Shown one piece after another: positions 15,001 to 52,128 of a stretch of 64,000 bases of DNA. Every line of letters starts with the position of its first letter. Positions within the stretch are counted from its first letter, which is position 1. A model generated the notes under the pieces. The model made no database searches. It worked only from the letters and a program-made list of their open reading frames with translations, and was not told the DNA's origin. Source of the stretch: Macrostomum lignano (lineage: Eukaryota); the NCBI GenBank assembly GCA_002269645.1, contig NIVC01000087.1, positions 868,001-932,000 on the forward strand. The letters are read 5' to 3'. A program made the translations under genes and the position numbers.

Positions 15001-15961
15001 CTATATAAAAGAGACATAATATGATAATAGACTAATAGATATGGAATAAACAAGTTGCATACAGTAAACAATGCTGATAGGACTAAGATTTTATAAATCT
15101 AATGTTAAGAAACATAGAACCCAATCCTAAAATCCTATTTTAATTCTTAAGACCATAGCAAAAATATAAAATTTTGGCTCAATCTAAAAAATATATGTTG
15201 TCTAACCATTGCACTATATATTTGTTATATTTTTCTAAAAAACAAATTGATTATTGAACTATTGTCTTGATTAAATTCCAGCCAATAAAAATGTTAACAA
15301 ATAAATAAAAATCTATATTAATAGTAGCAATGGTATAGTATTCTAAATGTAGCATAATGGCAATAAGAGCCTTGATTAGGCTCCTATATTATAGTTAGAG
15401 TGTTTTTATTTGTAGGCTAAATATATTAGAGAAGTTTTTAGAATTTTGCCATATTTAATAGACACATACAAAAAGAGCATAGAAGTTTCTAGAATATATA
15501 AGGAAATATTAATAAACTTAGGCAAGAACAATGCTTGTCTAGATATATAAAAATTTATAAAATATATATTTCTTAGAATAATAATAACATGTATTAGCAA
15601 GACAATATTTAGATATGCTTCTACTATATATAATTTTAATCCTAGCAACGATTAGAATATTATATTTTTATCCCATTGGATAAACAGTTCAAGTCTAAAT
15701 TGATAAGGTTTAATATCAACATGATATTAGCATATGTGCTAGAATAAAATCATTTGATTATTTGCTATATGCCATCATACATGCCCAACACCTAGCCAAC
15801 CCAGTCAATTTGGCTGGTTGGTAAAGGGTCTGGCCAGGCCAAGGTAAATTGCAAAAATGCTGACCCAATTAAATTAATATAGTACTAACTAGATGACAAG
15901 GCATTTAGCCTTTATAATACAGTTATATAGTTACTCTTGCTGTTTACCCAATATTACATTA

Positions 15962-16827
15962 TGTTGTAACCCGGGTCGGCTTGGGTGCCTAGTCCCGAGT
16001 ACAATATATTATATGTGATATAACAGGCGTTGTGACGCTCTGTCTGTACTTTTATGAATACGACGAGCAGGCGTGGCAACACTCTGCGATAATAATTCGA
16101 TCCCTCTGGTGTTGTGACACTCAGAGTTCACGCTGCGGCTCGAGGTGTGGTGACACTCTCGAGTGCTTCTATTCTCTATACCGTAGGGCGTACGCAATAT
16201 ATATGGTAAACGGTACCGTACTACAGAAGCTATATGGTCTCCCGGCGTTATGACACTCTGGCAAGAATTCGGCCTAGCAAGCTTCCCGAAAAGAAAGGAC
16301 TCAAACAGCAGGCGGCTTACCAGTGGCCAGATGACTGTTCATCGTTTATTATTCGCAGGTCTCAAGCGCAGTTTCCGACTTCTTCTTAATTCTCCAAGAC
16401 TCTTCTCAATTAGGCTATTGTGTTTCTTTTATCGAAGTAGCTAATGTTGCTGTTTCTTTTATCAGGTCTCGCGCTTGCACTCTTGGAGCACACCAAAACA
16501 CAAAAAGCACGCAGGTGGTGGGCAAGAGCCAGAGTCGCACCATAAATAGCACCCAAACCCTGGGGCAGACGGCCCACCGGCTAAGCTCACCAAAACAAAC
16601 CACGCCGGCCCAGCCAATCAAAACCCCGCCTAAGGGGGGAGGGGCTGCACCCGCGCCAAAGCTGGCCCGGCCGCAGCCAACCAGCCCTGAGCACGGGGCA
16701 GGGGCACGGCTGGGGAGGGGCACGCGCAAAGCCCGGCCGGGGCCAGACCCTGCCACGCCCGCCAACCCCCCCAACCAGCCCCAAAGTGCAACGCGCCCTG
16801 CCAACTGACAAGGGCGCATGCACTACA
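15962..16827 (-). repeat. 3' LTR (866 bp)
   Basis: About 99% identical to 24903-25738. On the minus strand it reads TGTAGTG...ACAACA, with a GC-box/CCAAT region, then TATTTAT (~16545), then AATAAA (16345-16350), in U3-R-U5 order. Confidence 0.96.
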
Positions 16828-16850
16828 CCCTCCCCTCCTAAAAAAAAAAA
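16828..16850 (-). promoter_or_regulatory. Polypurine tract (AGGAGGGGAGGG) preceded by a T11 U-tract
   Basis: Minus strand reads TTTTTTTTTTT AGGAGGGGAGGG, directly abutting the TG of the 3' LTR. Confidence 0.9.
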
Positions 16851-17074
16851 CAAGGCGGAGCTCGAACCACGGCGACTGGGATTCCAAATTTCAAATAACA
16901 AAGCAAAAAAAATCAAAAACAACAAAAAAATTAGAAACAAACTAATGCAAAGGGGAAAAAGAAAAATGGTTGCCGCAAAAGAAATATAAAAAAAATACTG
17001 GTTTTCTGCACGCAAGTTCGTCAGAGCAACCACGGGGCACGGAATAGGCTTTACATCAAAGCTGGCGCCACAGA

Positions 17075-17470
17075 AAACCATCGCAGGTGGCCAGCAGGAC
17101 GCGCAGGTGGCCGGCAGGAAGCGCAGATGGCCGGCAGGAAGTGCAGATGGCCGGCAGGGCACGCAGGTGGCCGGGCGGGATGCGCAGGTGGCCGGCAGGA
17201 CGCGCAAGTGGCCGGCAGGACACGCAGGTGGCCGGCAGGAAGTGCAGATGGCCGGCAGGGCACGCAGGTGGCCGGCAGGAAGTGCAGATGGCCGGCAGGG
17301 CACGCAGGTGGCCGGGCGGGACGCGCAGGTGGCCGGCAGGAAGTGCAGATGGCCGGCAGGGCACGCAGGTGGCCGGGCGGGACGCGCAGGTGGCCGACGC
17401 AGAAGCCGGCAGGAAGCGCACGTGGCCGCCGCAGAAGCCGGCAGGAAGCGCAAGTGGCCGCCGCAGAAGC
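17075..17470. repeat. GC-rich tandem repeat (16-17-bp subunits, GCAGGTGGCCGGCAGG core) in the retrotransposon 3' untranslated region
   Basis: Tandem periodicity between the J-protein ORF and the PPT. Confidence 0.85.
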
Positions 17471-17591
17471 CGCTGAGCCATTCCCCCAGGAAGCTTGACC
17501 CCACTAGCAAGCAAATAAACCCATACAGTACGAGCGTAACAACATACATACAAGTAAGCAGAAAATACAGTATGAATCGGAACTGGGCACC

Positions 17592-18538
17592 CTAGCGAAC
17601 CCGAAGTCCAGGGAGACCGACGCAGCTTTTCAGGACCTCGAGCAGCCTGCCAGGCCGGCGCAAACCGAACAGCGGGATGAGCTCGTGACAGAGCTGTCGG
17701 ACGAAACAATCAAAACTCTGCCTAGACCAGTAACGGCGGCCTGCTCTCTGACGCTTTACCGGAGCGATATCTCTGCGGATGAAGAACAACGCCTGCAGCA
17801 GGACCATTGACAGTGCGCTCCTCGGTTCTCGCTGCGAGTCTCGAAACAGCCGTCTCATAGCCGTGAGCACTGACACGATTCCGTCCGACTGTCCAGCCAA
17901 AATATGCTTCATCAAACGATGGCGGAGCTGACGCGCAGCTGCCGATAACGACAGCTTTTCATCATCCCATATTGCTCCCGACGCGCGATGTGAGACAACC
18001 TCCTTGCTTTCCGGTACATCGATCTCCATAGCTTCTGACTCACTACTTCGGAGGAGCCATCCGATGCCAGCAACTCGTCTTCTTCTTCTGTGTCGATGCT
18101 ACACTCATCCGACTCCTCGCTCTCATCGTCGTCCGAGATTAGAATGTAGCCATCCGCTTCGTAATCGTTCCTCTGTCCCTGTCTCCCCTGCCTGAGACCA
18201 GCTTCCTTGCGCTGAGCTTCTTCAACTTCTCGCCTTTGCTGTACTCCCTCTTCGATGTCCGCCGGCATTCTTACACCAGTAGGAGGTATGAACGTCATTG
18301 CGAAGGTTACAGCCTCGTCATACGGGATTGATTTATCGCCCAACTGGTCGTACATCGCTCGGCGATATGGACACGATAGAATTCTACCAGCAGTCTCAAT
18401 TTCTTGGAAACGGCGTCCTGCGAGTTCCTTGTCTGGGTGCTTGTCCGGGTGCCAGAAGAGCGCTAGCTGTCGATAGACTCGCCTGATCTCGGCACGTTCG
18501 GCTGTGTGTCCGACTTGGAGGACAGCGTACAAATCCAT
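17592..18538 (-). CDS. Retrotransposon accessory ORF3: J-domain (DnaJ/Hsp40) protein with acidic SIM-like tract; 208 aa as written (stop 17912), ~315 aa if a 1-nt loss at 18047-18048 is repaired
   Basis: First ATG at 18538: MDLYAVLQVGHTAERAEIRRVYRQLALFWHPDKHPDKELAGRRFQEIETAGRILSCPYRRAMYDQLG matches the canonical four-helix J-domain pattern with an intact HPD. The fusion with the 17592-18029 ORF is inferred. Confidence 0.88.
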
Positions 18539-18961
18539 CTGCAAAGCAACGTACTCAAACCTGCGACACACTGTCCCTGACTCCAGATTCTACTCCTGCT
18601 CCCCTCTTGCCAGAGCGTCATCTCCTCGGACCGTGGCCCGCGGTACCCTGCATCGTAAAGTCCCAGCGCAAATTCGAGTTGTCACCGGATGCCAGTCCGA
18701 ATACCCTCCACCGATGCATAGATTTTGTAGGCAAAATTTGATTCTCGTCAAAACTTCGATGAAGATGCGATTAAAATGACTTAATGACGCATTAACGAAT
18801 TTCTTGAATGACGCATTGGCGAACTGCTCGTACTCATGATGAATGATGCATTGATGAAGTACTCGTATTTATGATGAATGACGCATTCGCGAAATATTTT
18901 TCTGGCTTTTAACGATAATCGCATATGAAACTGATGAGACTTCACGATGACGAGTAACCCA

Positions 18962-20308
18962 TTAGAATGTCACTGGCTGGCCGTAGCGATCCGGCGGCCG
19001 TCGCAACCTTCCGGACCTTCGAGGCTCAGGTGCAGCTTCCACCGGGTTATGAGTAGGCTGCGGGTCGTCAACCAACTCCATCTGCTCTTCCAGCACCTCG
19101 GCGACTTCCTCAGCGTCCTGTGGCGGCATCAGTTGAGGCCGAGTCCAAGTCTCGCCTTCCGCATCTGCCTCCGAGTCCGTCTCGTCGACCACTTCCGGCG
19201 GTGCCGCGGTCCTAACTGGTGTTTCCAGGGCGGCCGGTCGAGCGAACTTCCGGAGGTTGTTGAAGTGGACGAACTTCGACTTTTTACGATTTGACGGGTT
19301 TTCCACTTTGAAGAGCACCTCGGATCTTCTTTCGAGCACCTTCACTGGGCCGAGCCAGCTTACGTGAAACTTTGCGGCTTCGTCTGGTTTCAGGGCGGGG
19401 CTGTAGACGAAGACATGGTCACCCTCCTGAATATCGGATCCTCGGGTTCTTTTATCGTACTGGTCCTTCTGTCGCCGCTGATAAGTATTCAACTGCTGTC
19501 GAGCAGCGCGATGAGCTGTCTGCAATTTGTCTTCTAGCTCCTTGACGAAATTTACATGCGAATCGACAGGCTGTGGCGGCTGGTCAGTCAAGTCTATCGG
19601 TAGGCGCATCTCCGTGCCATAGACCATGTAGTGGGGAGTATAACCCGTTGCTCGATGCACGCTTGATCGGTACGCCATTAACGCAGAGCTGACGAATTCT
19701 TCCCAGTCGTTTCGTCCTGAGTCCTCTAGGCAGCACTTGAGGATGGATTTTAAACTTTTATTGAAGTTTTCTACTTGTCCATTTCCGCTCGGATGATAAG
19801 CTGTTGTTCTGGACTTGCGGATCTCGAGTATCCTGCACATTTCGCGCATCACTTGCGATTCGAAGTTTCTTCCTTGGTCGCTGTGCAAAGTACTCGGACA
19901 CCCATGCTGGCTAATCCATCGATTGAAAAGCGCCCTTGCCACCGTCCTTGCCTTCTGGTTGCGAAGCGGGTACGCGTCAGGCCACTTCGTAAACGAATCT
20001 TGGACTGTCAGGAGATAAATGTTTCCAGCCTTACTCCGCGGTAGCGGCCCGACAATGTCCATCATGACGCAATCGAATGGTGCTGCGAATGTCAACGGTT
20101 GCAGGGGTGCTCGGTTTCGCTTGCCCGGCTTTGACTTGCAGCAGGTGGCACAACCGCGAATATATTCTTCAATGGCACGAGACAATCCTGGACGCCAGTA
20201 GCGCTGAAGCACTTTAAATTTTGTCTTCGCAAAGCCCATGTGGCCACCTCCCACTCCCTCGTGTAGGGTTTTCAAGATACGATCCAATGCCTTTCGTGGC
20301 AGCACCAT
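18962..20308 (-). CDS. Pol, integrase portion (HHCC zinc finger, DDE core, GPY/F-like module); -1 frame relative to upstream pol
   Basis: LHEGVGGGHMG...CATC (HHCC); DIVGP, HSDQGRNFES and NGQVENFNK (D,D35E); WLGPVKV (GPY/F-like). No chromodomain seen. Confidence 0.95.
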   Translation of the reverse strand: MVLPRKALDRILKTLHEGVGGGHMGFAKTKFKVLQRYWRPGLSRAIEEYIRGCATCCKSKPGKRNRAPLQPLTFAAPFDCVMMDIVGPLPRSKAGNIYLLTVQDSFTKWPDAYPLRNQKARTVARALFNRWISQHGCPSTLHSDQGRNFESQVMREMCRILEIRKSRTTAYHPSGNGQVENFNKSLKSILKCCLEDSGRNDWEEFVSSALMAYRSSVHRATGYTPHYMVYGTEMRLPIDLTDQPPQPVDSHVNFVKELEDKLQTAHRAARQQLNTYQRRQKDQYDKRTRGSDIQEGDHVFVYSPALKPDEAAKFHVSWLGPVKVLERRSEVLFKVENPSNRKKSKFVHFNNLRKFARPAALETPVRTAAPPEVVDETDSEADAEGETWTRPQLMPPQDAEEVAEVLEEQMELVDDPQPTHNPVEAAPEPRRSGRLRRPPDRYGQPVTF

Positions 20309-23300
20309 TGATACTCATCGCGCCTGTCTTTGTTTCTCACAAGGAGCACGTTCTCTTGCAGCACCAGGTCGTCTTTTCGAGTCCAGACGGCTCTAGCCAG
20401 TGGACTCCAAGCTGTCTCGCTTTTATCTGGAACTGGGTTTGAGCCAAGCGCTTCCTTTACTGTTCTCAAATCGTCGTCTTGATCCTGCTCGCTTGCCAGA
20501 TTGCCGGCTGAGAATCGTTCAAATTCGACTGCATTTAGTCCTTCTGGATGCTGCGCACATGCCGGGCATGTCTCCGCTCCGAAATGTCTCCGTACTGGCT
20601 TCCTCGACATTGCGTCCGCGTTGCCATGCGATCGACCTGGTCTGTGAACGATGCGGTACTGAAATGGAGCCAACTTCTCCAACCAGCGAGCAACCTGTCC
20701 CTCGGCGTCACTGAAGTTTTTTAACCATTGCAGGCTGCTGTGGTCCGTTCGCAGACAGAACGCTTTTCCAAGCAGATAGTATCTGAACTTCATGATGAAA
20801 GTCACAACCGCTAGTAGTTCTAAACGAGTCGTACAATAGTTGCGTTCGGCTTGATTTAGTGTCTTGGACCCATAGGCGATCACTCGTTCTGCTCCATCTG
20901 GCTGGACTTGAGAAAGTACCGCTCCTATGCCCATCTTCGAACTGCCATCAGTATCGAGGATAAACTCTCCGGCATCCGGGGAGAAATCCGGATGAGCCAT
21001 AACCTCTGAACTTGTCATTCGTTCCTTCAATGTTTCGAACGCCAGCTGCTGTTCCGTTTTCCATTCAAACTTTGCGTCTTTTGTTGTCAATCGAGTTAGA
21101 GGCGCTGCTATTGCGGCGAAATCTTTAATAAACTTTCTGTAATAGCCACACAGGCCCAAGAATGAATGCAGCTCCGTCGAGGATCGCGGTGTTGGCCAGT
21201 TCTTCACTTCTTGAACTTTCTCCTCATCGGTACTGATGCCAGCAGCCGACAGCGTGTGACCGAGAAATTTCACTTGCTTTTGCAAAAAGTGACACTTCTG
21301 GGGCTTCAGGCACAAATTTGCTTGCCGCAACTTGCTGAATATTTCCTCCAGTCTTCTCAGGTGTTCATCCACGTCGGTTGACCAAACCAGTAGATCGTCG
21401 ATGTAGACGAGACAGGTTTTCCACATCTGCTTGTCCAGAACGGCTGCCATCAACCTGGTGAATGTTGCTGGGCTGTTCACTAAGCCGAACGGCATAACCT
21501 TCCATCGAAATTGTCCGCGATGCGGCACTGCAAACGCCGTCTTGTCCTGATCCTGAGGTCTCACCCCTACTTGCCAAAACCCGCTGTGAAGGTCCATTGT
21601 CGAGAAGATCTTGGCGCCGTGTACTGCCTCCAGCGCATCATCGACCCTCGGCATCGGCACTGCATCCTTGACGGTGACCTCATTCAACTTCCGATAATCG
21701 ACGCACATCCTCATTTCCCCTGATTTCTTCTTTACGCACACCAAAGGAAAGCACCATGGTGACTGTGCTTCTTCGATCTGCCCCTTTTCCAGCAACTCGT
21801 TGACTTGACGATCTACTTCTGGCTGTAAGTGGGGAGGCAGACGACGCGGTGGGATCTTGATTGGGCGCGCATTCTCGGTGTTAATTTCATGCTCCACCAC
21901 GGTAGTTAACTTGCTTGAAGTCTGCTTGGTCGTGAACACATCGCTGTAACTCCGGACAAGGATTCTAAATTCTTCGTCTTCTTTCGTCGACAGTCCACAG
22001 TCGCCGTACGAGTTTGGTAGCAAGTCTGCTTCCGAAGGGCTGTTGCTGCCTTGGACCTTCGGCTCTTCCTGTGGATCGTCTCCTGACTCTACGGCTAAGA
22101 GCTTGATGGTGTTCAACGGTTCGGTGGATTCTAGGGGGCAGAACCACCCGAGCGTACAACCTTGGCGAATTCTGACTGGCTCTTCCGTGATATTGATGAG
22201 TCGAGTCGGCAGACGGCTGCCGCTATTTGGGATCACTAAGGCCTTAGCAAGCCAGCGGCCAGCTGCCAAATCGTTGGCTCCGAGATTCTCAGTTAGACCG
22301 ACACACCCTCTGTTCCGTCGTCCTTTGCTCTCCAGCCTTGCTGACAGAACTGCTTGATGACCTGGCGGTATTGTGCTGGACCTTGTCGCCAAAATTCTGC
22401 AAACGATCGGGCGCTCAGCTTGCCATCGGAACGGGATTGCAGTGTCCTGCACTGAAAAGACAGCTGTCTTGTAGTCGATGACGCAACTGTTGTCCCTGCA
22501 GAAGTCGGATCCCAATACCAGTTGGTACTTCACTCCGCTGACTACCAAGGCTGGAGTATCTATTACTTTATCAGCGATTGATAGTCGCAACAGGACTGTT
22601 CTCTCGATTTCGATCGGGCTGCCGTTTGCTAAGCTAACATAGCCTTTAGCACCGGCCAAATCTCTGACGCTCTGTTTCGGCATACTTTGGTAGGCTTCCC
22701 GTGAGATAATGGTGCAGGAAGCTCCCGAGTCCACTAGCGCGTTCACCCTCCGCCCTGCGATTGAGGCCGTAACATATATCGACGCATGATTGATTTGAAT
22801 TGACTGAGGTGCGTTGACGGTGATTGGGCGCTGCGACTGTGCAAAACCGGCTAGTTGATGGTGAGGTGCAGTACCGGACGCTGGAGGCTGATGAGGCACT
22901 GTAACGGATACTGGATGCTGATGAGACTCAGTACCGGACACTGTAGGCTGATGAGGCGCAGTACCGGACACTGGAGGCTGATGAGGCACTGTACCGGACA
23001 CTGGATGCTGATGAGACACAGTACCGGACACTGGAGGCTGATGAGACGCTGTACCGGACACTGGATGCTGATGAGGCGCAGTACCGGACACTGGATGCTG
23101 ATGAGGCGCAGTACCGGACGCTGGAGGCTGATGAGGCGCAGTACCGGACACTGGATGCTGATGAGGCGCAGTACCGGACACTGAATGCTGATGAGGCGCA
23201 GTACCGGACACTGAATGCTGATGAGGCACTGTACCGGACACTGGATGCTGATGAGATGAAGTACCGGACACTGGATGCTGATGAGGCGCAGTACCGGACA

Positions 23301-23736
23301 CTGGATGCTGATGAGGCGCAGTACCGGACACTGGATGCTGATGAGGCGCAGTACCGGACGCTGGAGGCTGATGAGGCACTGTAACGGACACAGGATGCTG
23401 ATGAGACTCAGTACCGGACACTGTAGGCTGATGAGGCACTGTTCCGGACACTGGATGCTGATGAGACACAGTACCGGACACTGGAGGCTGATGAGACGCT
23501 GTACCGGACGCTGGAGGCTGATGAGGCGCAGTACCGGACACTGAATGCTGATGAGGCGCAGTACCGGACACTGGATGCTGATGAGGCGCAGTACCGGACA
23601 CTGGAGGCTGATGAGATGAAGTACCGGACACTGGATGCTGATGAGGCGCAGTACCGGACACTGGAGGCTGATGAGACGCAGTGATGATGATGAGATGAGA
23701 TGACGACTTGTTCGGAGGCTGACGAATTGCAGGGGC
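20272..23736 (-). CDS. Pol: repeat spacer, aspartic protease, reverse transcriptase, RNase H
   Basis: Protease LVDSGAS; RT RMCVDYRKLN, FSTMDLHSGFWQV, MPFGLVNSPATF and VYIDDLL; RNase H FILDTDGS, ELLAVV, TDHSSL and NADAMSR. The frame is open from immediately after the gag UGA. Confidence 0.95.
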   Translation of the reverse strand, partial: APAIRQPPNKSSSHLIIITASHQPPVSGTAPHQHPVSGTSSHQPPVSGTAPHQHPVSGTAPHQHSVSGTAPHQPPASGTASHQPPVSGTVSHQHPVSGTVPHQPTVSGTESHQHPVSVTVPHQPPASGTAPHQHPVSGTAPHQHPVSGTAPHQHPVSGTSSHQHPVSGTVPHQHSVSGTAPHQHSVSGTAPHQHPVSGTAPHQPPASGTAPHQHPVSGTAPHQHPVSGTASHQPPVSGTVSHQHPVSGTVPHQPPVSGTAPHQPTVSGTESHQHPVSVTVPHQPPASGTAPHHQLAGFAQSQRPITVNAPQSIQINHASIYVTASIAGRRVNALVDSGASCTIISREAYQSMPKQSVRDLAGAKGYVSLANGSPIEIERTVLLRLSIADKVIDTPALVVSGVKYQLVLGSDFCRDNSCVIDYKTAVFSVQDTAIPFRWQAERPIVCRILATRSSTIPPGHQAVLSARLESKGRRNRGCVGLTENLGANDLAAGRWLAKALVIPNSGSRLPTRLINITEEPVRIRQGCTLGWFCPLESTEPLNTIKLLAVESGDDPQEEPKVQGSNSPSEADLLPNSYGDCGLSTKEDEEFRILVRSYSDVFTTKQTSSKLTTVVEHEINTENARPIKIPPRRLPPHLQPEVDRQVNELLEKGQIEEAQSPWCFPLVCVKKKSGEMRMCVDYRKLNEVTVKDAVPMPRVDDALEAVHGAKIFSTMDLHSGFWQVGVRPQDQDKTAFAVPHRGQFRWKVMPFGLVNSPATFTRLMAAVLDKQMWKTCLVYIDDLLVWSTDVDEHLRRLEEIFSKLRQANLCLKPQKCHFLQKQVKFLGHTLSAAGISTDEEKVQEVKNWPTPRSSTELHSFLGLCGYYRKFIKDFAAIAAPLTRLTTKDAKFEWKTEQQLAFETLKERMTSSEVMAHPDFSPDAGEFILDTDGSSKMGIGAVLSQVQPDGAERVIAYGSKTLNQAERNYCTTRLELLAVVTFIMKFRYYLLGKAFCLRTDHSSLQWLKNFSDAEGQVARWLEKLAPFQYRIVHRPGRSHGNADAMSRKPVRRHFGAETCPACAQHPEGLNAVEFERFSAGNLASEQDQDDDLRTVKEALGSNPVPDKSETAWSPLARAVWTRKDDLVLQENVLLVRNKDRRDEYQWCCHERHWIVS
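22861..23682 (-). repeat. Coding minisatellite, 30-bp unit, ~27 copies, encoding (VSGTAPHQHP)n between Gag NC and protease
   Basis: Exact 30-nt period with no stop in the pol frame. Confidence 0.93.
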
Positions 23737-24657
23737 TCACTTGCCTCCAGCTGGTGGGCCCCTCTTGCCTTTTCCCGGCTTTGGGCACTGGAATGAGAGA
23801 TGGCCTATCTCCCCGCAGTTGTAGCACTTGACACCGCTACGCTGCTTCGAGCTGGACGGAGCCGCCTGCTTGGATTGTTGCTTGTCTTGAAGACCGGGTT
23901 CGGGCGGCTCCTGCTGGCCCTGCTGGATCTGCTCTATCCGTCGGATCTTTTCTTCCATTTCCTTTACTTTTTGACGCAGTTGCCGTAGCTCCTCGTCTTT
24001 GCCGGTGTCACCTGTCGACGTTTCGGTGGCAAAGGCATTCAGCCCAGCCCTGGGTCTGGCTTTGGACTGGGTCGAAGACGCCTTCTGGGCTGCTTCAAGT
24101 TGTCTTACTGTTCGAATGGCATCGGTGAGGTTGGCCGGCTGCTGCAGGTACAGTCTTTCTCGGACAGTGTCGGTTACTCGAACGCCTTTTAGAAATCTGT
24201 CTTTCGCCAGCTCTGTCCTGGTGTCGGCATCCGCGGTGAGGAAGGCATTGCGCACCAACTCCAGCAGCTCGTCCCCGTAGGTCTCCACAGACTCCTTGTC
24301 TAGCTGATCTCGATTCGATAATTCAAAACGGTAGTCCTGGGCTGTTCTGTTCATGGTGAACCGCGCCAGCAGTGCATCCGTGAATTCCCCGTACTCGATG
24401 TCGTCTGCCAAGTCCAGCTTATCAACGGCAGCGTAGGCTGTTGTGAGGTCGAGTAGGCCGATCAGGTGCGGCCGCCTGGCTTCTTCTTCTATACCGACAG
24501 CCTCGCAGTACTCGTTGAAACTCTGCAGCCATAGGCTGAAATTCATCGTTGGTATGTACTTGGGCGGCTTCGAGAGTCGTGGCGCTGCTCGGTCGGCGTT
24601 GGCTCTGAGGCGCGCAGCCAGCGCATCGATCAGTTGGTCCATAGCTTGATCACCCAT
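23737..24657 (-). CDS. Gag (capsid plus one CCHC nucleocapsid knuckle), 306 aa
   Basis: ATG in GCCATGG context at 24657; CYNCGEIGHLSFQC zinc knuckle; ends in TGA at 23737-23739. Confidence 0.93.
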   Translation of the reverse strand: MGDQAMDQLIDALAARLRANADRAAPRLSKPPKYIPTMNFSLWLQSFNEYCEAVGIEEEARRPHLIGLLDLTTAYAAVDKLDLADDIEYGEFTDALLARFTMNRTAQDYRFELSNRDQLDKESVETYGDELLELVRNAFLTADADTRTELAKDRFLKGVRVTDTVRERLYLQQPANLTDAIRTVRQLEAAQKASSTQSKARPRAGLNAFATETSTGDTGKDEELRQLRQKVKEMEEKIRRIEQIQQGQQEPPEPGLQDKQQSKQAAPSSSKQRSGVKCYNCGEIGHLSFQCPKPGKGKRGPPAGGK

Positions 24658-24881
24658 GGCCGAAGTCACTGAATACCGTTGCTACTCTTTACTCTGAGGT
24701 GGTGATAGCTATCAATCTCTGATAACCAATCAGTTGTCTGTCACCGTGATCAATGTCTTTTGCGGTAGGGCAATAGCCGCAGGCGATAAGCAAAAGTCGT
24801 TTTAATAAGAAAAAACGCTCACAATATGACAGCAATTTTCATAGAAAGCAACTGAGCCGACTTTCAATCTTTGGGGACAGG

Positions 24882-24899
24882 GTCCCTGTTCGGGCGCCA
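24882..24899 (-). promoter_or_regulatory. Primer-binding site complementary to the 3' 18 nt of tRNA-Lys(UUU)
   Basis: Minus strand TGGCGCCCGAACAGGGAC, 3 nt inside the 5' LTR end; the same 18-mer as the HIV-1 tRNA-Lys3 PBS. Confidence 0.93.
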
Positions 24900-24902
24900 A
24901 TT

Positions 24903-25738
24903 TGTTGTAACCCGGGTCGGCTTGGGTGCCCAGTCCCGAGTACAATATATATTATATGTGATATAACAGGCGTTGTGACGCTCTGTCTGTACTTTTATGA
25001 ATACGACGAGCAGGCGTGGCGACGCTCTGCGATAATAATTCGATCCCTCTGGTGTTGTGACACTCAGAGTTCACGCTGCGGCTCGAGGTGTGGTGACACT
25101 CTCGAGTGCTTCTATTCTCTATACCGTAGGGCGTACGCAATATATATGGTAAACGGTACCGTACTACAGAAGCTATATGGTCTCCCGGCGTTATGACGCT
25201 CTGGCAAGAATTCGGCCTAGCAAGCTTCCCGAAAAGAAAGGACTCAAACAGCAGGCGGCTTACCAGTGGCCAGATGACTGTTCACCGTTTATTATTCGCA
25301 GGTCTCAAGCGCAGTTTCCGACTTCTTCTTAATTCTCCAAGACTCTTCTCAATTAGGCTATTGTGTTTCTTTTATCGAAGTAGCTAATGTTGCTGTTTCT
25401 TTTATCAGGTCTCGCGCTTGCACTCTCGGAGCACACCAAAACACAAAAAGCACGCAGGTGATGGGCAAGAGCCAGAGTCGCACCATAAATAGCACCCAAA
25501 CCCTGGGGCAGACGGCCCCACCGGCTAAGCTCACCAAAACAAACCACGCCGGCCCAGCCAATCAAAACCCCGCCTAAGGGGGGAGGGGCAGCACCCGCGC
25601 CAAAGCTGGCCCGGCCGCAGCCAACCAGCCCTGAGCACGGGGCAGGGGCACGGCTGGGGAGGGGCACGCGCAAAGCCCGGCCGGCGGCCAAACCCTGCCA
25701 CGCCCGCCCTGCCAACTGACAAGGGCGCATGCACTACA
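24903..25738 (-). repeat. 5' LTR (836 bp)
   Basis: Partner of 15962-16827. Differs by 9 substitutions and 4 indels (34, 2, 1, 1 bp) by hand alignment. Confidence 0.96.
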
Positions 25739-26548
25739 ATTACTTTTATAGGGTGTTTTATAAGTAATTAACATTTTTGGTCAAAAATTAAGTTGCATAG
25801 TCAGGTGAAACTTTGAAGTTGGGCATGTATGTATGCCATGTATTAGGGATATATCTTTCTAAAATCTAGAAATTTTATTTTTTTACAATGACCTTACTTA
25901 AATTTAGAGATTTTTATTGTATGCTTCCTTATTGCCCACTCCAAAATCATTGCTATGCCACTATTTGATGCTTTAAATAGGCCAATGGCATTTCTGAAAG
26001 TCAAAATACAGCATTGTTTTCCTAAACTATATACCATTAGTCAATTGATTCATACATGCGCAACAGTCGGCCGAGTCGGCCGATCCGGCCGACTGATTTG
26101 GCAGCCAACCAAGGAAGTCGCAAAAATGCCCACCCAAAAAAATACCCCGTAGTAGTACTAAGTAGCTGACGAGGCATTTTTGCCTGATAAGACAGTCATA
26201 GTTACTACCGGCGTTTACCCAAAGTTGCGTTAATTTTGCTTTGGGGTTTTTTTACATGTAAGTCGCATTTTTGGCCAAAAACTACGTCGCATTTTTGTTA
26301 AAACTAAGTCGCACGGCCGACCGAATTTTGGACGTTGCATATGTCACTAATCACAGATTTTTATTTCAAAGCCAACACCTTTGATAGATAACACCTTGGA
26401 TGATGCACATTGTGTGGATCATAATGCAATAGAAAGTAAACATCCTAACATATAGTATAGCTCACAGCAGTTAGATGTAAGCCAAGTTAAAGCTATTTGC
26501 ATGGATCTATTGCATTGCCACCCGCAGCTGCAGTGAGCATTCCGTGTC

Positions 26549-29500
26549 ATGGGTAACACGCCAAACAGTGAGGGCCGAGCTCGGAGACTTTCTGCCCAGC
26601 TTGGCAGTGCCGCCGCTGGCGGCGAGGGTGCCTACCAGGCGCCGTACAAGCGAAAGAATGAGCCGTTCAATTTTGGCCCAGAATTTTCAGCTGAAATTCC
26701 CAGCATTGTGAAGGTAAATTTGCATTTTTTATTATTTGTTTTTTTAAGTCATGAGGCCTGAGACTTCAAATGGTTGTAAAGATCTCTTGAGAAGAGAGGA
26801 TCCAGATTCCCGAGTCTGTAGATGATGCTGGATCTCTTGAGAAGAGAGGATCCAGATTCCCGAGTCTGTAGATGATGCTGGATCTCTTGAGCAGAGAAGA
26901 TCCAGATTCCCGAGTCTGTAGATGATGCTGGATCTCTTGAGCAGAGAAGATCCAGATTCACGAGTCTCTAGATGATGCTGGATCTCTTGAGCAGAGAAGA
27001 TCCAGATTCACGAGTCTCTAGATGATGCTGGATCTCTTGAGCAGAGAAGATCCAGATTCACGAGTCTGTAGATGATGCTGGATCTCTTGAGCAGAGCAGA
27101 GAGGATCCAGATTCCCGAGTCTGTAGATGATGCTGGATCTCTTGAGCAGAGAGGATCCAGATTCCCGAGTCTGTAGATGATGCTGGATCTCTTAAGCAGA
27201 GCAGAGAGGATCCAGATTCCCGAGTCTGTAGATGATGCTGGATCTCTTGAGCAGAGAGGATCCAGATTCCCGAGTCTGTAGATGATGCTGGATCTCTTGA
27301 GCAGAGAGGATCCAGATTCCCGAGTCTGTAGATGATGCTGGATCTCTTGAGCAGAGAGGATCCAGATTCCCGAGTCTGTAGATGATGCTGGATCTCTTAA
27401 GCAGAGAGGATCCAGATTCCCGAGTCTGTAGATGATGCTGGATCTCTTAAGCAGAGAGGATCCAGATTCCCGAGTCTGTAGATGATGCTGGATCTCTTGA
27501 GCAGAGAGGATCCAGATTCCCGAGTCTGTAGATGATGCTGGATCTCTTGAGCAGAGAGGATCCAGATTCCCGAGTCTGTAGATGATGCTGGATCTCTTGA
27601 GCAGAGAGGATCCAGATTCACGAGTCTGTAGATGATGCTGGATCTCTTGAGCAGAGCAGAGAGGATCCAGATTCCCGAGTCTGTAGATGATGCTGGATCT
27701 CTTGAGCAGAGAGGATCCAGATTCCCGAGTCTGTAGATGATGCTGGATCTCTTAAGCAGAGCAGAGAGGATCCAGATTCCCGAGTCTGTAGATGATGCTG
27801 GATCTCTTGAGCAGAGAGGATCCAGATTCCCGAGTCTGTAGATGATGCTGGATCTCTTGAGCAGAGAGGATCCAGATTCCCGAGTCTGTAGATGATGCTG
27901 GATCTCTTAAGCAGAGAGGATCCAGATTCCCGAGTCTGTAGATGATGCTGGATCTCTTAAGCAGAGAGGATCCAGATTCCCGAGTCTGTAGATGATGCTG
28001 GATCTCTTAAGCAGAGAGGATCCAGATTCCCGAGTCTGTAGATGATGCTGGATCTCTTGAGCAGAGAGGATCCAGATTCCCGAGTCTGTAGATGATGCTG
28101 GATCTCTTGAGAAGAGAGGATCCAGATTCCCGAGTCTGTAGATGATGCTGGATCTCTTGAGCAGAGAGGATCCAGATTCACGAGTCTGTAGATGATGCTG
28201 GATCTCTTGAGCAGAGAGGATCCAGATTCCCGAGTCTGTAGGTGATGCTGCATCTTTTGAGCAGAGCAGAGAGGATCCAGATTCCCGAGTTTGTAGATGA
28301 TGCTGGATCTCTTGAGCAGAGCAGAGAGGATCCAGATTCCCGAGTTTGTAGATGATGCTGGATCTCTTGAGCAGAGAGGATCCAGATTCCCGAGTCTTTA
28401 GATGATGCTGGATCTCTTGAGCAGAGCAGAGAAGATCCAGATTCCCGAGTCTGTAGATGATGCTGGATCTCTTAAGCAGAGCAGAGAAGATCCAGATTCC
28501 CGAGTCTGTAGATGATGCTGGATCTCTTAAGCAGAGCAGAGAGGATCCAGATTCCCGAGTCTGTAGATGATGCTGGATCTCTTAAGCAGAGAGGATCCAG
28601 ATTCCCGAGTCTGTAGATGATGCTCGATCTGTTGAGCATTGATGATCCAGATTCCCGAGTCTCTAGATGATGCTCGATCTCTTGAGCATAGATGATCCAA
28701 ATCTATGCTGCATCACAAAATCAAAAAGGATCCAGATTCCCGAGTCTAACAAAGAATCTCTCTGAAGTTTTTCGCATAACATATAATGACGCATACAGAG
28801 TTATGCATTGCCTCTGTGTGTTATAGGCCAAAGTTCTAAGAATTTTTTGTATTAATTTGCGCTGTCATGACTAAAAAGTGTGCGAACTACGGTTCTTGGA
28901 ACGGGGTTAGTTATTTTTTTTATAAGCAGTTTTCTTTTTACTCGCTTATTAAATATTCTCACGATTGAATTTCTTGTCTGTACTTGGCTTTAACACTAAC
29001 AGCAGTCTAGCGAGGACGAGGGCTTCAGAATTCGCGCTTCCACGATAACCGAGAGGCCTGGCGATCACGTGACCGCCAATAAGCTGCCCACCGTATTCAA
29101 ATGGGAGGGCGGCACCGCCAAGGAGGTGTACCTTAGCGGCAGTTTCAACAACTGGCAGACTAAGATTCCATTAGTGAAGAGGTTTGCCGCTCTCTTATTT
29201 GTTTTTATTAGTTTTAAGTTTTCTAAGTTGTCTACTGATAGTAGCGAAAAGTTTTTTTATCGTTTTTTAGCCAGGATCATTTCTATACGATTGTGGACCT
29301 GCCGGAAGGAGAGCACCAATATCAGTTTATTGTGGACGGCAAGTGGCAGGTCAACGCTAAGGAGGTGAGAGTCTAGGTTTGTTCGGTATTAGAGTGGCTC
29401 AGGGGGAATCGGTCAGATTAACTGTGGCTCAGAGGGAATCGGTCAGATTAACTGTGGCTCAGAGGGAATCGGTCAGATTAACTGTGGCTCAGAGGGAATC

Positions 29501-49178: not shown

Positions 49179-52128
49179 TCACTTCTTGTCGGGCAGGTTG
49201 GTCTTGAAGGTGCGGCGCAGCGGCTTGTGCGAGTACACCTGGTCGGAGCCGTTGCCGTGCCACAGGTTCCAGCAGCTCGGGCAGAAGTAACGAAAGCACT
49301 CAAAAGCGCGGCAGAAGTAGATGCCGGGCGACACGAAGCAGTGGTTGCACATGCTGTCCTCCAGGTACGGGTCGATTTGAATCTGGGATGAAGTTTTTAA
49401 TTAGAAGCAAATAAATGTAACGATTGCAAGCGTGTCAGACTACTGCTGTAAGTAGAGTAAAACAAGTTTTTAGTTAAATTTTTAAACCTCTCGTAATACG
49501 CAGATTTCGGGCGGCTTCAAGAATCTGTTGATAAATATCAGATGAAGAAAACAGAAACAAGCTAAATATATAAAGTTTCTGTACTTTGCTTTCCTTATAC
49601 ATTTGGTTCCAATTGAGTCGTCGTGTTTTGAGCAACCTAAAACCTGCTGTATAGTGTTATGACCATCAAAAAAACAAATTACAATACTAACTGAATGGGC
49701 CGCTTTAGGTATTATTTGTTAAGCGTTCCTCTACCTTCAGTAGCAAGGACGAATGCTTAAGCTATTTTATGAAAAGAAAAACAAAAAGCTCTTGCAAACG
49801 TAAACAGTTAGCTATATTGGTGCAGCCATAATGCACAGGAGGCAGGAGCCAGCGTTACTAAAAATGTACATGTATGTACATCGTGGCAGATTCAGGCTGG
49901 AATATTAAACTGTACGGTGGGGCGGGGGACAGACGTTTAATGAGAAAGAGACCGTCGTAAGAGGGCCTCTGCGAGTTTAACTTGCTAACTGAACTAAAGG
50001 TTGGCTAATCTATCTACCTGTAAACCGGCAAGTAAACAGAATGAACTCTCCAGAGCTTACCGTCTTGGTGAACTTAGCCGTGCGCACCTCGACAAAGTTG
50101 GCTTGCACAGCTTTCATGTAGGAGCGCTGGCTGGTGAAGGCCACCCGGCCGGAGCCAATGGGGTACTTGTACTTGTCAGTGTCCAGGGCGGCGAAGGCCA
50201 CGTTGCCGAACAGGTCGTTCATGATGGTGGCGAGCGCCTCGGCGGTGATCATGCCGTGCAGAGCGCCGATGAACACTGTGCGCTTGGCGTCCAGCCTGTG
50301 CGAGCCCTGCTTGGTGAACTGAGAATCGTTGATGCACCAAGGGATCACCTGCACCTCCTTGGCCTTCATCTTGCTGCTGCTGATCTTGAAATAGTACTCA
50401 CCGATGTTAGTGGCGTCGCGGGTGCACTGCTTGAGCAGGTTGCGCACGGAGAGCTCTTGGTCGAAGATCAGATAGCAGTAGCCTCTCGGTGACGAGCGAA
50501 TCTGCACGTTCGAGGCCTCGCGAGCCGGCCAGAGCACCTGCAGTGTGCCGAAGCGCAGGAAAGCCTGCTGCAGGTCGAGGTCGCTGACGTCCCAGGGCAC
50601 ACCACCGAGAAAGACTTTGCGCGAGAAGATGGCATTTTTGTAGACGCGAACGGGCAGCTTGCCAGACCAGTGGTGGTGCGCGTCGCTCGTAGAGGCAGAG
50701 TTCCGGTAGAAGCTGGCCGCCTTCTCAATCTCGTCGTCGCTGTTTGTCATCAAGTTTCGGTAGAGCGCCGCCATGGAGGACACTTCCTCGTGGTAGTTCG
50801 GCTGGCCGGCTCCACCGCCGCGGGCTCCGGAAGCAGCCGCTGCAGCTGCCAGGGCCAGCGAGGACCCGGCGGCGCCTTCCATCTGCTGCTCCGATGAGGT
50901 GACCGCACGGAGCGACTGGTTTGCTGCGGCCGCAGCAGCGGCGGCGGCAGCGGATGGCGGTCCGCCAGCTCCTGGAGCACCGGGCAGCTGGGCGCTGCTG
51001 CCAATAACCGATGCGGCAGCGGCGGCGGCAGCGGCAGCTGCAGCTGGATTATTGCCCGGCCATTGGTACGGATACTGGCTTCCGGTATTGAACAGCTTCA
51101 GAAGCTCCGCGCTGTAGAGCTGCAGTTGAGTCTCCTGCTGCTGGCGTCTCATCTCTTCTAGCCAGTAGGCCCTGATGAGGTCCTGGTTGAAGCCGGTGGC
51201 CGCGGCAGCTCCCGGTGGCACCAGAGGCGGCTGCTGCTGTTGGCCATAGGCGACGCTTACAGCTGGGTTGCTCAGCAGCTGGGCGAGTGCCGCCTGGCTC
51301 TGCATTTGTGCCTTCTGAGCCTCGGTCAGGCTGCTGGCTTGGTGGTGCTGCTGCTGCTGGTGGTTGAACTGGCGATTGTTGGACTGCTGTTGCTGCTGCT
51401 GGTGAGGCGACTGGTGCGCTTGCTGTTGCTGATGCTGCGCACTCTCGGCTTGGCTCGCCGCGGTTTTCTGCTGCTGCTGCTGTCCGCCTTCGCCGCCGAA
51501 AATCGAGTCGGATAAGTCCGTGCCGCTGGAAATGCCGCTGGAGTCCATTGGCTCGGAGCCCATAGACGTATTGCCGCTCTTACGGCCGCTGTGCTGGGAG
51601 CTGCGAATCGCGCGAAAGCCAGCCGCCTCTAGATTGGTCTTGGGCGTCTGCATAGCGGACGACACAGAGGGAGAGTTGGCTGCCGCCAGATTCATGTTCT
51701 CATTGGTTGGAGTTGGGGTGAGACCCGTGCCCAGGCTCTGGATGCCGAACAGAGACTGCAGCGGATTGGGACTGGCGTAGTGGTCGTGGTGCATGGACCA
51801 GATGCTGTTGTTATTCATGTCGGAGCCTGCGCAAATCCGGGGTGGGTGGGAGACTGGTTTTCAGCATTGAGAAATCAGATGACGAGCGGAAAAGGAATTC
51901 TGTTGCCGCTTTAGCCTAAAATTTGGACAGATGTTTCTTCAACTGTTTGAGCCTATTTAAGTCGGGGACTCGGGGGGGGGGCTTTTTCAAAGTTTCGTCA
52001 CGGTGCAGATTCAATAAATGCGAGACAAGAAAAGGCGCAGACTAAAGCAAGCAAAGTGTGCACGTACTCTCAAACTTTAGCGTCCCAGAGTCGGCAGTGG
52101 AGTCGCCAAGCGTGTGATCCAGAATCAT
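49179..52128 (-). CDS. CPEB1: Cytoplasmic polyadenylation element-binding protein, CPEB1/Orb subfamily
   Basis: Exons 52128-52068 (inferred; phase 1, donor GTACGT), 51826-50061 and 49382-49179. Q/A-rich N-terminus; RRM1 FSRKVFLGGVPWD...RGYCYLIF; RRM2 TVFIGALHG...KYPIGSGRVAF; ZZ zinc finger IQIDPYLEDSMCNHC...YFCPSCWNLWH...HKPL. Confidence 0.95.

Follow-up and report, generated by a model that had tools for sequence, protein, structure and literature searches.

A captured J-domain gene kept as a third open reading frame by a clade of Gypsy retrotransposons in Macrostomum lignano

Introduction

Additional third open reading frames (ORF3s) on Gypsy long terminal repeat (LTR) retrotransposons and J-domain proteins encoded by viruses are each known; the interest here lies in a whole active clade of Gypsy elements that keeps a J-domain ORF3. 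We describe this clade starting from one element in a 64,000-nucleotide stretch of the Macrostomum lignano genome (assembly GCA_002269645.1, contig NIVC01000087.1, positions 868,001 to 932,000; the whole stretch is termed the window and its numbering is used throughout), in which ORF3 lies at 17592–18538 on the minus strand. Related elements are grouped into families A (that of the window element), B, C, D, D', E, E', F, G and I.

A J-domain bearing the HPD (His-Pro-Asp) motif triggers ATP hydrolysis by Hsp70 on whatever its protein holds, and that of SV40 large T antigen uses Hsp70 to break up Rb-E2F. Viral J-proteins that redirect Hsp70 are established (PMC13254874). Polyomavirus T antigens such as SV40 large T resemble ORF3 in that an HPD J-domain opens the protein and an acidic linker containing a short docking motif comes next, and both are a mobile element's own device for directing Hsp70 (PMC13254874), but large T belongs to a DNA virus and docks on Rb via LxCxE, found in only one of 14 ORF3 sequences, and no ancestry common to the two is seen beyond the J-domain. 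The Rki proteins of phages RB16, RB42 and RB43 are class-C J-proteins serving as viral accessory genes (PMC13254874); their host is bacterial, however, and their target sigma-32, whereas ORF3 carries chromatin-type modules and its elements lack heat-shock elements. The J-protein cases in the available part of that review come from phage, polyomavirus, herpesvirus and Plasmodium, and 'transpos' is matched nowhere in the paper (PMC13254874).

Cellular domains captured in the ORF3 position are known from LTR retrotransposons of bdelloid rotifers, whose non-env ORF3s (DEDDy exonuclease, GDSL esterase) are family-specific and usually form a separate spliced unit; the available part of that paper mentions neither DnaJ nor chaperones (PMC5408684). 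The TatD-like domain of our families G and I parallels the bdelloid DEDDy nuclease, but bdelloid ORF3s keep their catalytic residues (PMC5408684) whereas the TatD-like domain looks decayed. CERV, encoded by the C. elegans Gypsy element Cer1, offers a parallel as an accessory protein that is nuclear and translated from a spliced mRNA, but no J-domain is mentioned for it in the available text (PMC10309623), and we detected no similarity to ORF3. Errantiviruses, like our elements, have a third and likely spliced ORF between pol and the 3' LTR; ORF3 differs in having no signal peptide or membrane segment.

Chromoviruses are Gypsy elements encoding a chromodomain, fused there to the integrase; family E also encodes one, but in a separate ORF between J-domain and helical domain, and in one lineage only. 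VANC of plant VANDAL DNA transposons is an element-encoded anti-silencing protein with sequence-specific DNA binding and no chaperone. It resembles ORF3, as interpreted below, in being an element-encoded protein proposed to undo host silencing, with the difference that this role has been shown for VANC and is only suggested for ORF3.

Full-text literature searches, judged from titles, term counts and the starts of abstracts, returned no J-domain retrotransposon, although subscription papers, bioRxiv supplements, the earlier LTR classification of the species, Repbase, Dfam or GyDB could mention ORF3. The terms DnaJ, J-domain, Hsp40 and Macrostomum are absent from the available part of a 2026 errantivirus survey (PMC13524379), as are DnaJ, J-domain, Hsp40, ORF3 and chromodomain from the available main text of PMC12801592, in whose supplement the DnaJ rows shown are host genes.

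Results and discussion

A J-domain gene between integrase and polypurine tract

The initial annotation of the window reported a J-domain with intact HPD at the start of ORF3, on the gag-pol strand and inside the element. Pfam DnaJ indeed matches residues 2–64 (E = 1.9e-18; 66.8 bits against a cut-off of 27.8), and the gene lies on the minus strand, as gag and pol do, between the integrase stop (18962) and the polypurine tract (16828–16840), inside both LTRs. The Pfam match, the place inside the element and the many copies described below support the view that a J-domain gene was captured into the ORF3 position. The gene and its parts are:

17592..18538, minus strand: ORF3, accessory gene with the J-domain; 315 aa where sister copies are open, interrupted near 18048 here
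18347..18535, minus strand: J-domain (aa 2–64), HPD at 18451–18443, basic helix II
18170..18346, minus strand: family-specific helical extension, LxCP..R..YD..G ... P.D, conserved in all families
18125..18148, minus strand: putative SUMO-interacting-like motif YILISDDD in the disordered acidic linker (aa ~122–197)
17619..17942, minus strand: basic five-helix C-terminal domain (aa ~200–307 of the open form) with a K/R-rich loop

The predicted J-domain superposes on solved J-domains at ~1 Å root-mean-square deviation over 64–69 residues. HPD and basic helix II are kept in all ten J-bearing rows of our alignment (A3), at 23–55% identity to family A, while the HPD reads RPD in family G and is absent in family I. 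From established J-domain biology, the HPD-bearing members very probably stimulate Hsp70. Instead of the G/F-rich region and beta-sandwich client-binding domains of class A or B DnaJ proteins, ORF3 has an acidic linker and an all-helical C-terminal domain after the J-domain, and by this predicted architecture its product is a class-C J-domain protein.

The donor first suggested, a DNAJC17/Cwc23-type gene, is not borne out: Cwc23 scores 31.9 bits against 74–76 for DnaJ, DNAJC5 and others, and no RRM was found in ORF3. The residues LQ before the initial methionine, which had been taken for a DNAJC17-like start, are most simply read as a splice acceptor (TTGCAG|ATG), because in families A, B, C and E the ATG follows straight after an AG. 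The best J-domain matches among solved structures are DNAJB2-type for family A and DNAJC5 for the sequence P0009, and those among single sequences are DNAJB2/DNAJB3-like and DNAJC5. In this genome the best host match is an intronless DnaJ (45% over 73 residues), the donor comparison having taken in one host DnaJ gene (L064).

The window copy is not the single ORF described at first, since its J frame ends after 208 aa (at 17912) and the remaining 151 aa are read in a different frame. The interruption lies near 18048, and pol has a second one near 20307. Contigs from four public sequencing runs pass both sites as other genomic copies do, so that the breaks are either private to this copy or assembly errors. 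A DNA search of the genome gave 36 matches, 24 of them full-length at 98–100%. Among the 27 family A loci (26 places, the window included) the frame is open at 20, with 13 giving a 315-aa ORF and seven keeping the frame but passing the usual stop; a further six, including the window copy, are truncated and one is without a start. The ORF3 stop (17592–17594) is thus polymorphic, the seven readthrough copies (L008–L011, L013, L015 and L016) among the 20 frame-intact ones extending to 344–566 aa, and three run through a hydrophobic stretch and the 20-nt repeat array.

ORF3 across families and beyond this assembly

Confinement to this copy, which would have spoken for a one-off insertion or misassembly, is not what we find: ORF3 occurs in many copies and in at least seven families. 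Identity between families is 23–36% by BLASTP, and 23–34% for C, D, E and F against family A in alignments. At least 137 ORF3-type places were hand-picked in the genome, with J matches resembling host genes left out: A 26, B 2, C 10, D 22, D' 4, E 28, E' 4, F 6, G 8, I 26, and one (C2475) matching the TatD-like part alone. The protein searches scored the best 87–137 candidates each and the counts are lower bounds as regards places; they may nevertheless overstate independent insertions, as a study of the species describes the assembly it used as redundant owing to hidden tetraploidy (PMC12801592).

One whole element was read for each of families C, D and E, all with gag-pol, LTRs 99% alike, and ORF3 between integrase and 3' LTR; for B, D', F, G and I the integrase and ORF3 only were read. 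Target duplications of 4 bp are present in families A, C, D and E, with LTR identities of 98–99.6%, and the ORF3-bearing elements are recently active.

Pairing of integrase and ORF3 was assessed for 146 of 147 integrase rows (one second fragment was dropped), with 146 of 4443 candidates scored. An ORF3-type place lies within 3.5 kb downstream in 27 of 30 integrase matches at ≥89% identity and in 70 of 86 at 48–60%, or 97 of 116 at ≥48%. At 43–47% identity it was found in none of 30, which may partly reflect falling sensitivity. Relatives at 50–55% identity with no nearby ORF3 match could be losses, interrupted copies, or cases in which ORF3 is too divergent to detect; they lie on C229, C349, C150, C109, C222, C3798, C1405, C23, C3200, C2269, C10, C228, C272 and C4067. 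An integrase relative without an ORF3 match, L070, was rejected as an example of ORF3 loss because the unrelated open frame that follows, read from its translation, resembles the endonuclease of a non-LTR element.

A profile built from four families and run against 1.84 billion representative proteins gave 145,278 matches at E ≤ 0.001. Among the 150 matches listed, all but a few cover the J-domain only, but seven of the nine at E ≤ 1e-30 cover family-specific parts. Two of these seven are M. lignano gene models and five are Logan or JGI records, which are 76% (to E), 51% (to A) and 33–41% (to C) identical to the nearest family. Because of these identities, which span 33–76%, the five are probably from other species. 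Two JGI proteins, P0011 (an ORF3 relative) and P0164 (a Pol with 66% reverse transcriptase identity), share a 7008-base contig and each group with family C, and they are probably parts of one element outside this assembly. For the DNA context of outside relatives, no locus was found in metagenome or viral contigs. Word-based protein searches missed the family, with four weak J matches in one and a single match in the other.

The protein containing the family F ORF3 is an M. lignano gene model (P0013), and a Pol protein with 100% identity over the 400-aa reverse transcriptase query (P0158) is likewise assigned to M. lignano by its source. Automated annotation merges ORF3 with pieces of pol in P0006, P0013 and P0169. 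Many annotated 'J-domain proteins' in this species should be viewed with caution, being transposon-borne.

Selection and a single origin

Neutral evolution, another outcome that would have spoken against a functional gene, does not fit the ratios of nonsynonymous to synonymous substitution (dN/dS) of 0.10–0.24, with upper bounds ≤0.40. Between families A and B, dN/dS is 0.10 (95% interval 0.04–0.21) for the J part, 0.19 for the linker and 0.24 (0.13–0.39) for the C-terminal domain; between D and D' it is 0.19 and 0.14, similar to 0.06–0.21 for the integrase, with the caveat that synonymous sites are near saturation. Within family A, seven nonsynonymous changes, four synonymous changes and one stop are too few to judge selection. 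ORF3 is almost certainly a selected accessory gene.

In a tree of reverse transcriptase–RNase H sequences (45 rows, quick method, imperfect root), families A, C, D and E form one branch with an SH-aLRT (Shimodaira–Hasegawa-like approximate likelihood ratio test) support of 98, together with database Pols matching D, E, F and I and two JGI Pols; the family I Pol was assigned by 89 of 90 identical integrase residues. The sister of the ORF3 clade is a sea-anemone Pol with other database records, the outside rows being database hits. A tree of the J-domain and extension (45 rows, 78 columns, rough support) splits 13 element-type rows from 32 cellular rows with support of 93/97, and the split is present in 90% of bootstrap trees. 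As far as these sequence trees resolve, ORF3 is shown to have a single origin, and it is an old accessory gene of one Gypsy clade.

The J tree also rejected a candidate member, L068, in which a J-domain lies near the start of an intronless frame of 1374–1449 aa (1449 aa in L068 itself). Such frames occur at five places (L068, G000:C575:334900-337300; C3488 twice, C1744 and C1901) and may represent a host gene or another mobile element.

One element suggests that ORF3 can move between relatives. L028 (G000:C94:930345-934264) has 93–98% protein identity to family A in the integrase at a synonymous divergence (dS) of 0.14–0.17, but only 60–84% in ORF3 at a dS of 1.0–1.2. The ORF3 cassette thus seems to have been exchanged between related elements.

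Extension, linker and C-terminal modules

In the model of the open 315-aa protein the J-domain is predicted with confidence and the helical extension reaches residue ~123; an acidic linker that is disordered (122–197) and a five-helix domain (200–307) follow. The initial annotation was right that ORF3 is not env: the window ORF3 has no transmembrane segment (highest 19-residue hydropathy 1.33) and its N-terminus is the J-domain. Over 14 ORF3 sequences the highest 19-residue hydropathy is 0.8–1.6, and with no membrane segment in any sequence, and no signal peptide, ORF3 is not an envelope gene.

The C-terminal domain, modelled alone with 13 sequences, reached a pLDDT (predicted local distance difference test) of 86, and in family A it holds 23 K+R against 7 D+E. 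The best fold-search hit among 48,161 chains had a Z of 7.9, within the helical-bundle background, and Foldseek gave no match at E ≤ 0.001 in PDB or BFVD, leaving no clear structural match among the folds listed. A profile of the domain matched nine of 277 stored proteins, all of them family members. Homology to DnaJ-X (PF14308) is doubtful, as an Atlas lead of 0.77 vanished once the J-domain was removed and gave way to mixed helical-repeat clusters; no DnaJ-X match was found by Pfam in ORF3 or in the genome.

SUMO-interacting motifs (SIMs) consist of a hydrophobic core followed by Ser and acidic residues. Nine of 14 linkers contain a relaxed form of this pattern, where shuffled sequences would give 1.8, and none of six acidic integrase tails does; a core pattern is present in eight of 14 against 0.5 expected, and two further linkers carry a shorter core form. 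In two sequences, family E (L063:7430-7609) and P0007, the linker position holds a chromodomain (Pfam E = 1e-12) whose nearest solved structures are Swi6 and HP1. Both lack the SIM-like motif, so that one or other module is found in 13 of 14 sequences. In family D, a stretch at the chromodomain position may, by eye in the alignment, be a decayed remnant.

In families G and I a TatD-like domain is appended to a decayed J-domain in frames of 552–598 aa (L069:820-2301 and L066; ~34 places). It scores below cut-off (NCBIfam E = 5e-4, Pfam E = 0.018), one His ligand reads Arg, and the domain looks decayed, but all five PDB matches at E < 1 are TatD-type (query without the last ~64 residues of the ORF), and the family I protein still matches the ORF3 family profile (E = 3e-13). 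A literature search combining TatD, retrotransposon and Gypsy found no paper.

A putative spliced message

Two sites suggest how ORF3 could be expressed:

25258..25266, minus strand: putative splice donor CTG|GTAAGC in the 5' LTR
18539..18550, minus strand: putative splice acceptor, a pyrimidine run and CAG directly before the ORF3 ATG

All four LTRs read (A, C, D and E) contain a donor-like GTAAG[CT] at position 475–570, and they otherwise share only a CCAAT-box stretch. AG directly precedes the ORF3 ATG in four of the six families read (A, B, C and E, not D or F). Because of this putative acceptor and the donor-like sites in the LTRs, a spliced ORF3 mRNA is likely. Contigs from two public runs, whose RNA origin is a guess, span ORF3 and integrase without a splice. 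None of the public runs listed as containing the sequence is on record as RNA, which is uninformative about expression.

A possible role against nuclear silencing

We favour the reading that ORF3 is an adaptor bringing Hsp70 to silencing complexes marked by SUMO or by methylation of histone H3 lysine 9 (H3K9), at a probability of roughly 0.45. ORF3 would be translated from a message in which the LTR donor is spliced to the acceptor at the ORF3 start codon, and the K/R-rich loop would take the protein to the nucleus or onto nucleic acid. The SIM-like motif, or the HP1-like chromodomain in family E, could then dock it on SUMOylated or H3K9-methylated silencing chromatin, where Hsp70 would loosen the repressive complex on the element's own copies and allow more transcription. 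In the G/I subclade, with its decayed HPD and added TatD-like domain, the protein may act as a scaffold or decoy without normal Hsp70 stimulation. The chromodomain, the SIM-like motif that occupies its position elsewhere and the basic domain each suggest a nuclear protein, which is why a nuclear target is favoured, and the apparent cassette swapping suggests that the target belongs to the host. SUMO genes are present in this genome, and in Drosophila the silencing of chromatin guided by piRNAs depends on SUMO (10.1101/533091). The initial annotation had offered both Gag/Pol folding and the dismantling of silencing complexes as uses for the J-domain, and the second fits the SIM-like motif, chromodomain and basic domain better. 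That the clade as a whole encodes an Hsp70-recruiting counter-silencing factor, reading SUMO or H3K9 methylation through swappable modules (SIM, chromodomain, decayed TatD), is a more tentative proposal.

Several observations weigh against an anti-silencing role. The strict V/I/L SIM consensus is met in only three of 14 linkers (0.9 expected), family A not among them; the patterns used above were picked after the sequences were seen, and the counts are not 14 independent tests because the sequences are related. The chromodomain is found in one lineage only and keeps two of three cage aromatics, the third being replaced by V or L. Hsp70 stimulation is evidently not needed throughout the clade, because families G and I (~34 places) have lost the HPD. 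A protein caught in an arms race would be expected to change fast and adaptively, whereas ORF3 is under purifying selection. Finally, contigs of four runs from four studies show no splice joint or loose end over 17480–22850, a stretch that excludes the LTR donor, in contigs that drop minor forms and come from runs guessed to be RNA.

Unlikely, in our view, but the first of the alternatives, is a cytoplasmic chaperone adaptor bringing Hsp70 to Gag, Pol or the particle for folding, assembly, reverse transcriptase activation or uncoating, in which the basic domain would bind genomic RNA or Gag. In its favour, the J-domain is intact and under selection, Hsp70 use is common among viruses (PMC13254874), and a basic helical domain could bind RNA. 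It leaves the HP1-like chromodomain and the SIM-like motif unexplained, however, and in related Gypsy elements no nearby ORF3 was detected (none in 30); the cassette swap, with an ORF3 dS of ~1.0–1.2 against 0.14–0.17 for the integrase, also fits a host target better than a Gag/Pol-specific one.

Similar modules could serve integration, with ORF3 binding the pre-integration complex, steering it to chromatin as a chromovirus-like chromodomain supplied in trans, and Hsp70 stripping integrase from the finished junction. The chromodomain of family E, the lack of one in the family A integrase and the nucleic-acid-directed TatD-like domain of G and I are all in keeping with such a helper, but a chromodomain restricted to one lineage, and apparent cassette swapping, which argues against tight co-evolution with integrase, make it improbable.

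We also think it improbable that ORF3, translated from the spliced message, is an export factor resembling Rev or CERV, its arginine-rich loop binding unspliced genomic RNA and Hsp70 freeing this RNA from nuclear retention. Genomic RNA would be intron-containing if the donor-like motif (four of four LTRs) and the AG before the ATG (four of six families) are used, the C-terminal domain has a K/R-rich loop, and Cer1 CERV provides a precedent (PMC10309623). Against this, Pfam and fold searches gave no similarity to CERV or Rev, the role does not need a chromodomain, and splicing is itself predicted from sequence.

Much less probable is manipulation of the heat-shock response, in which ORF3 would divert Hsp70 from heat-shock factor and so keep the stress response and element transcription on. 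Heat-driven LTR elements exist in this species (PMC12801592) and phage Rki with sigma-32 offers a precedent (PMC13254874), but the LTRs of A, C, D and E have no canonical heat-shock element, and Mlig-id38, which is induced by heat, measures ~5.9 kb and is on no contig that has an ORF3 match. A link of the ORF3 elements to published heat-induced families was therefore rejected, Mlig-id38 being too short and located elsewhere; a 30-nt LTR word taken from PMC12801592 has 48 matches in this genome, and its reversed control none.

The idea that ORF3 is a passenger, either a functionless piece of a captured host DnaJ gene or an artefact of assembly, draws on the broken window copy and on family A changes too few to show selection. 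It is largely refuted by frames that stay open at 23–36% identity in seven families, by dN/dS of 0.10–0.24 with upper bounds ≤0.40, by the target duplications of four families and by the relatives that exist beyond this assembly.

If ORF3 does act against silencing, it would be a retroelement-encoded co-chaperone, for which we found no precedent, and a case of chaperone-driven escape from transposon silencing. Little is settled about how animal transposons evade or reverse nuclear silencing, and few counter-measures encoded by the elements themselves are known. In the present case an entire clade has retained a captured co-chaperone despite deep divergence, its targeting part having been rebuilt more than once. 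At 315 aa, ORF3 is a small candidate for an SV40 large T-like trick in a retrotransposon, and its mechanism can be tested directly in this species, for which transgenesis and public RNA data exist. Should one of the rival readings prove right, the gene would still represent a new class of accessory ORF3.

The element in the window and its surroundings

The remaining features of the window element are:

15962..25738, minus strand: full-length Ty3/Gypsy LTR retrotransposon of family A, 9.8 kb, TG...CA ends
15958–15961 and 25739–25742: 4-bp target-site duplication flanking both element ends
24903..25738, minus strand: 5' LTR, 836 bp, with CCAAT-like box, AATAAA at LTR position 446 and donor-like site at 475
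24882..24899, minus strand: primer-binding site, 18 nt, common to families A, C and D
23737..24657, minus strand: gag, 306 aa, CCHC zinc knuckle
20272..23736, minus strand: pol, first frame (protease, reverse transcriptase, RNase H); frame break near 20307 in the window copy
22856–23682, minus strand: 30-nt tandem array in the first pol frame
18962..20314, minus strand: pol, second frame (integrase: H2C2, rve core, p58-type C-terminal domain, acidic tail)
17082..17472, minus strand: degenerate 20-nt tandem array in the 3' untranslated region
16828..16840, minus strand: polypurine tract
15962..16827, minus strand: 3' LTR, 866 bp, ~30 bp longer than the 5' LTR near its start

The order gag, then protease, reverse transcriptase, RNase H and integrase, with a primer-binding site and polypurine tract, is that of Ty3/Gypsy elements. 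A domain search found no chromodomain in the family A integrase, at whose C-terminus a chromovirus would carry one, and the primer-binding site is presumably of the tRNA-Lys type. The LTR pair differs by nine mismatches in 832 aligned bases (~99% alike), and the element is young. Between the integrase stop (18962) and the ORF3 ATG (18538) lies a spacer of 423 bp.

Pol continues in the same frame after the gag TGA (23737–23739), its opening 30-nt array encoding a ten-residue H/P/S-rich repeat. Sister copies have pol frames of up to 1598–1682 aa, and in the D and E copies read pol begins in a different frame from gag. The end of ORF3 (~17575–17605) overlaps a 27-nt inverted near-copy of the LTR 3' end (85%, E = 0.014, with the last 40 bases compared), which was not found in families C, D and E and could allow long-range pairing in the RNA.

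Elsewhere in the genome, an apparently intronless SUMO gene (L071) occurs in seven places, some as inverted pairs (G000 C1551, C1565, C2589 and C2596). Pieces of host genes near the element in the window include an AMPK beta glycogen-binding exon (29000–29180, plus strand), an RRM_7 frame (50013–51860, minus strand; putatively CPEB-type, from its Pfam family) and an Omp85 frame (59356–60039, plus strand; putatively Sam50-like, from its Pfam family).

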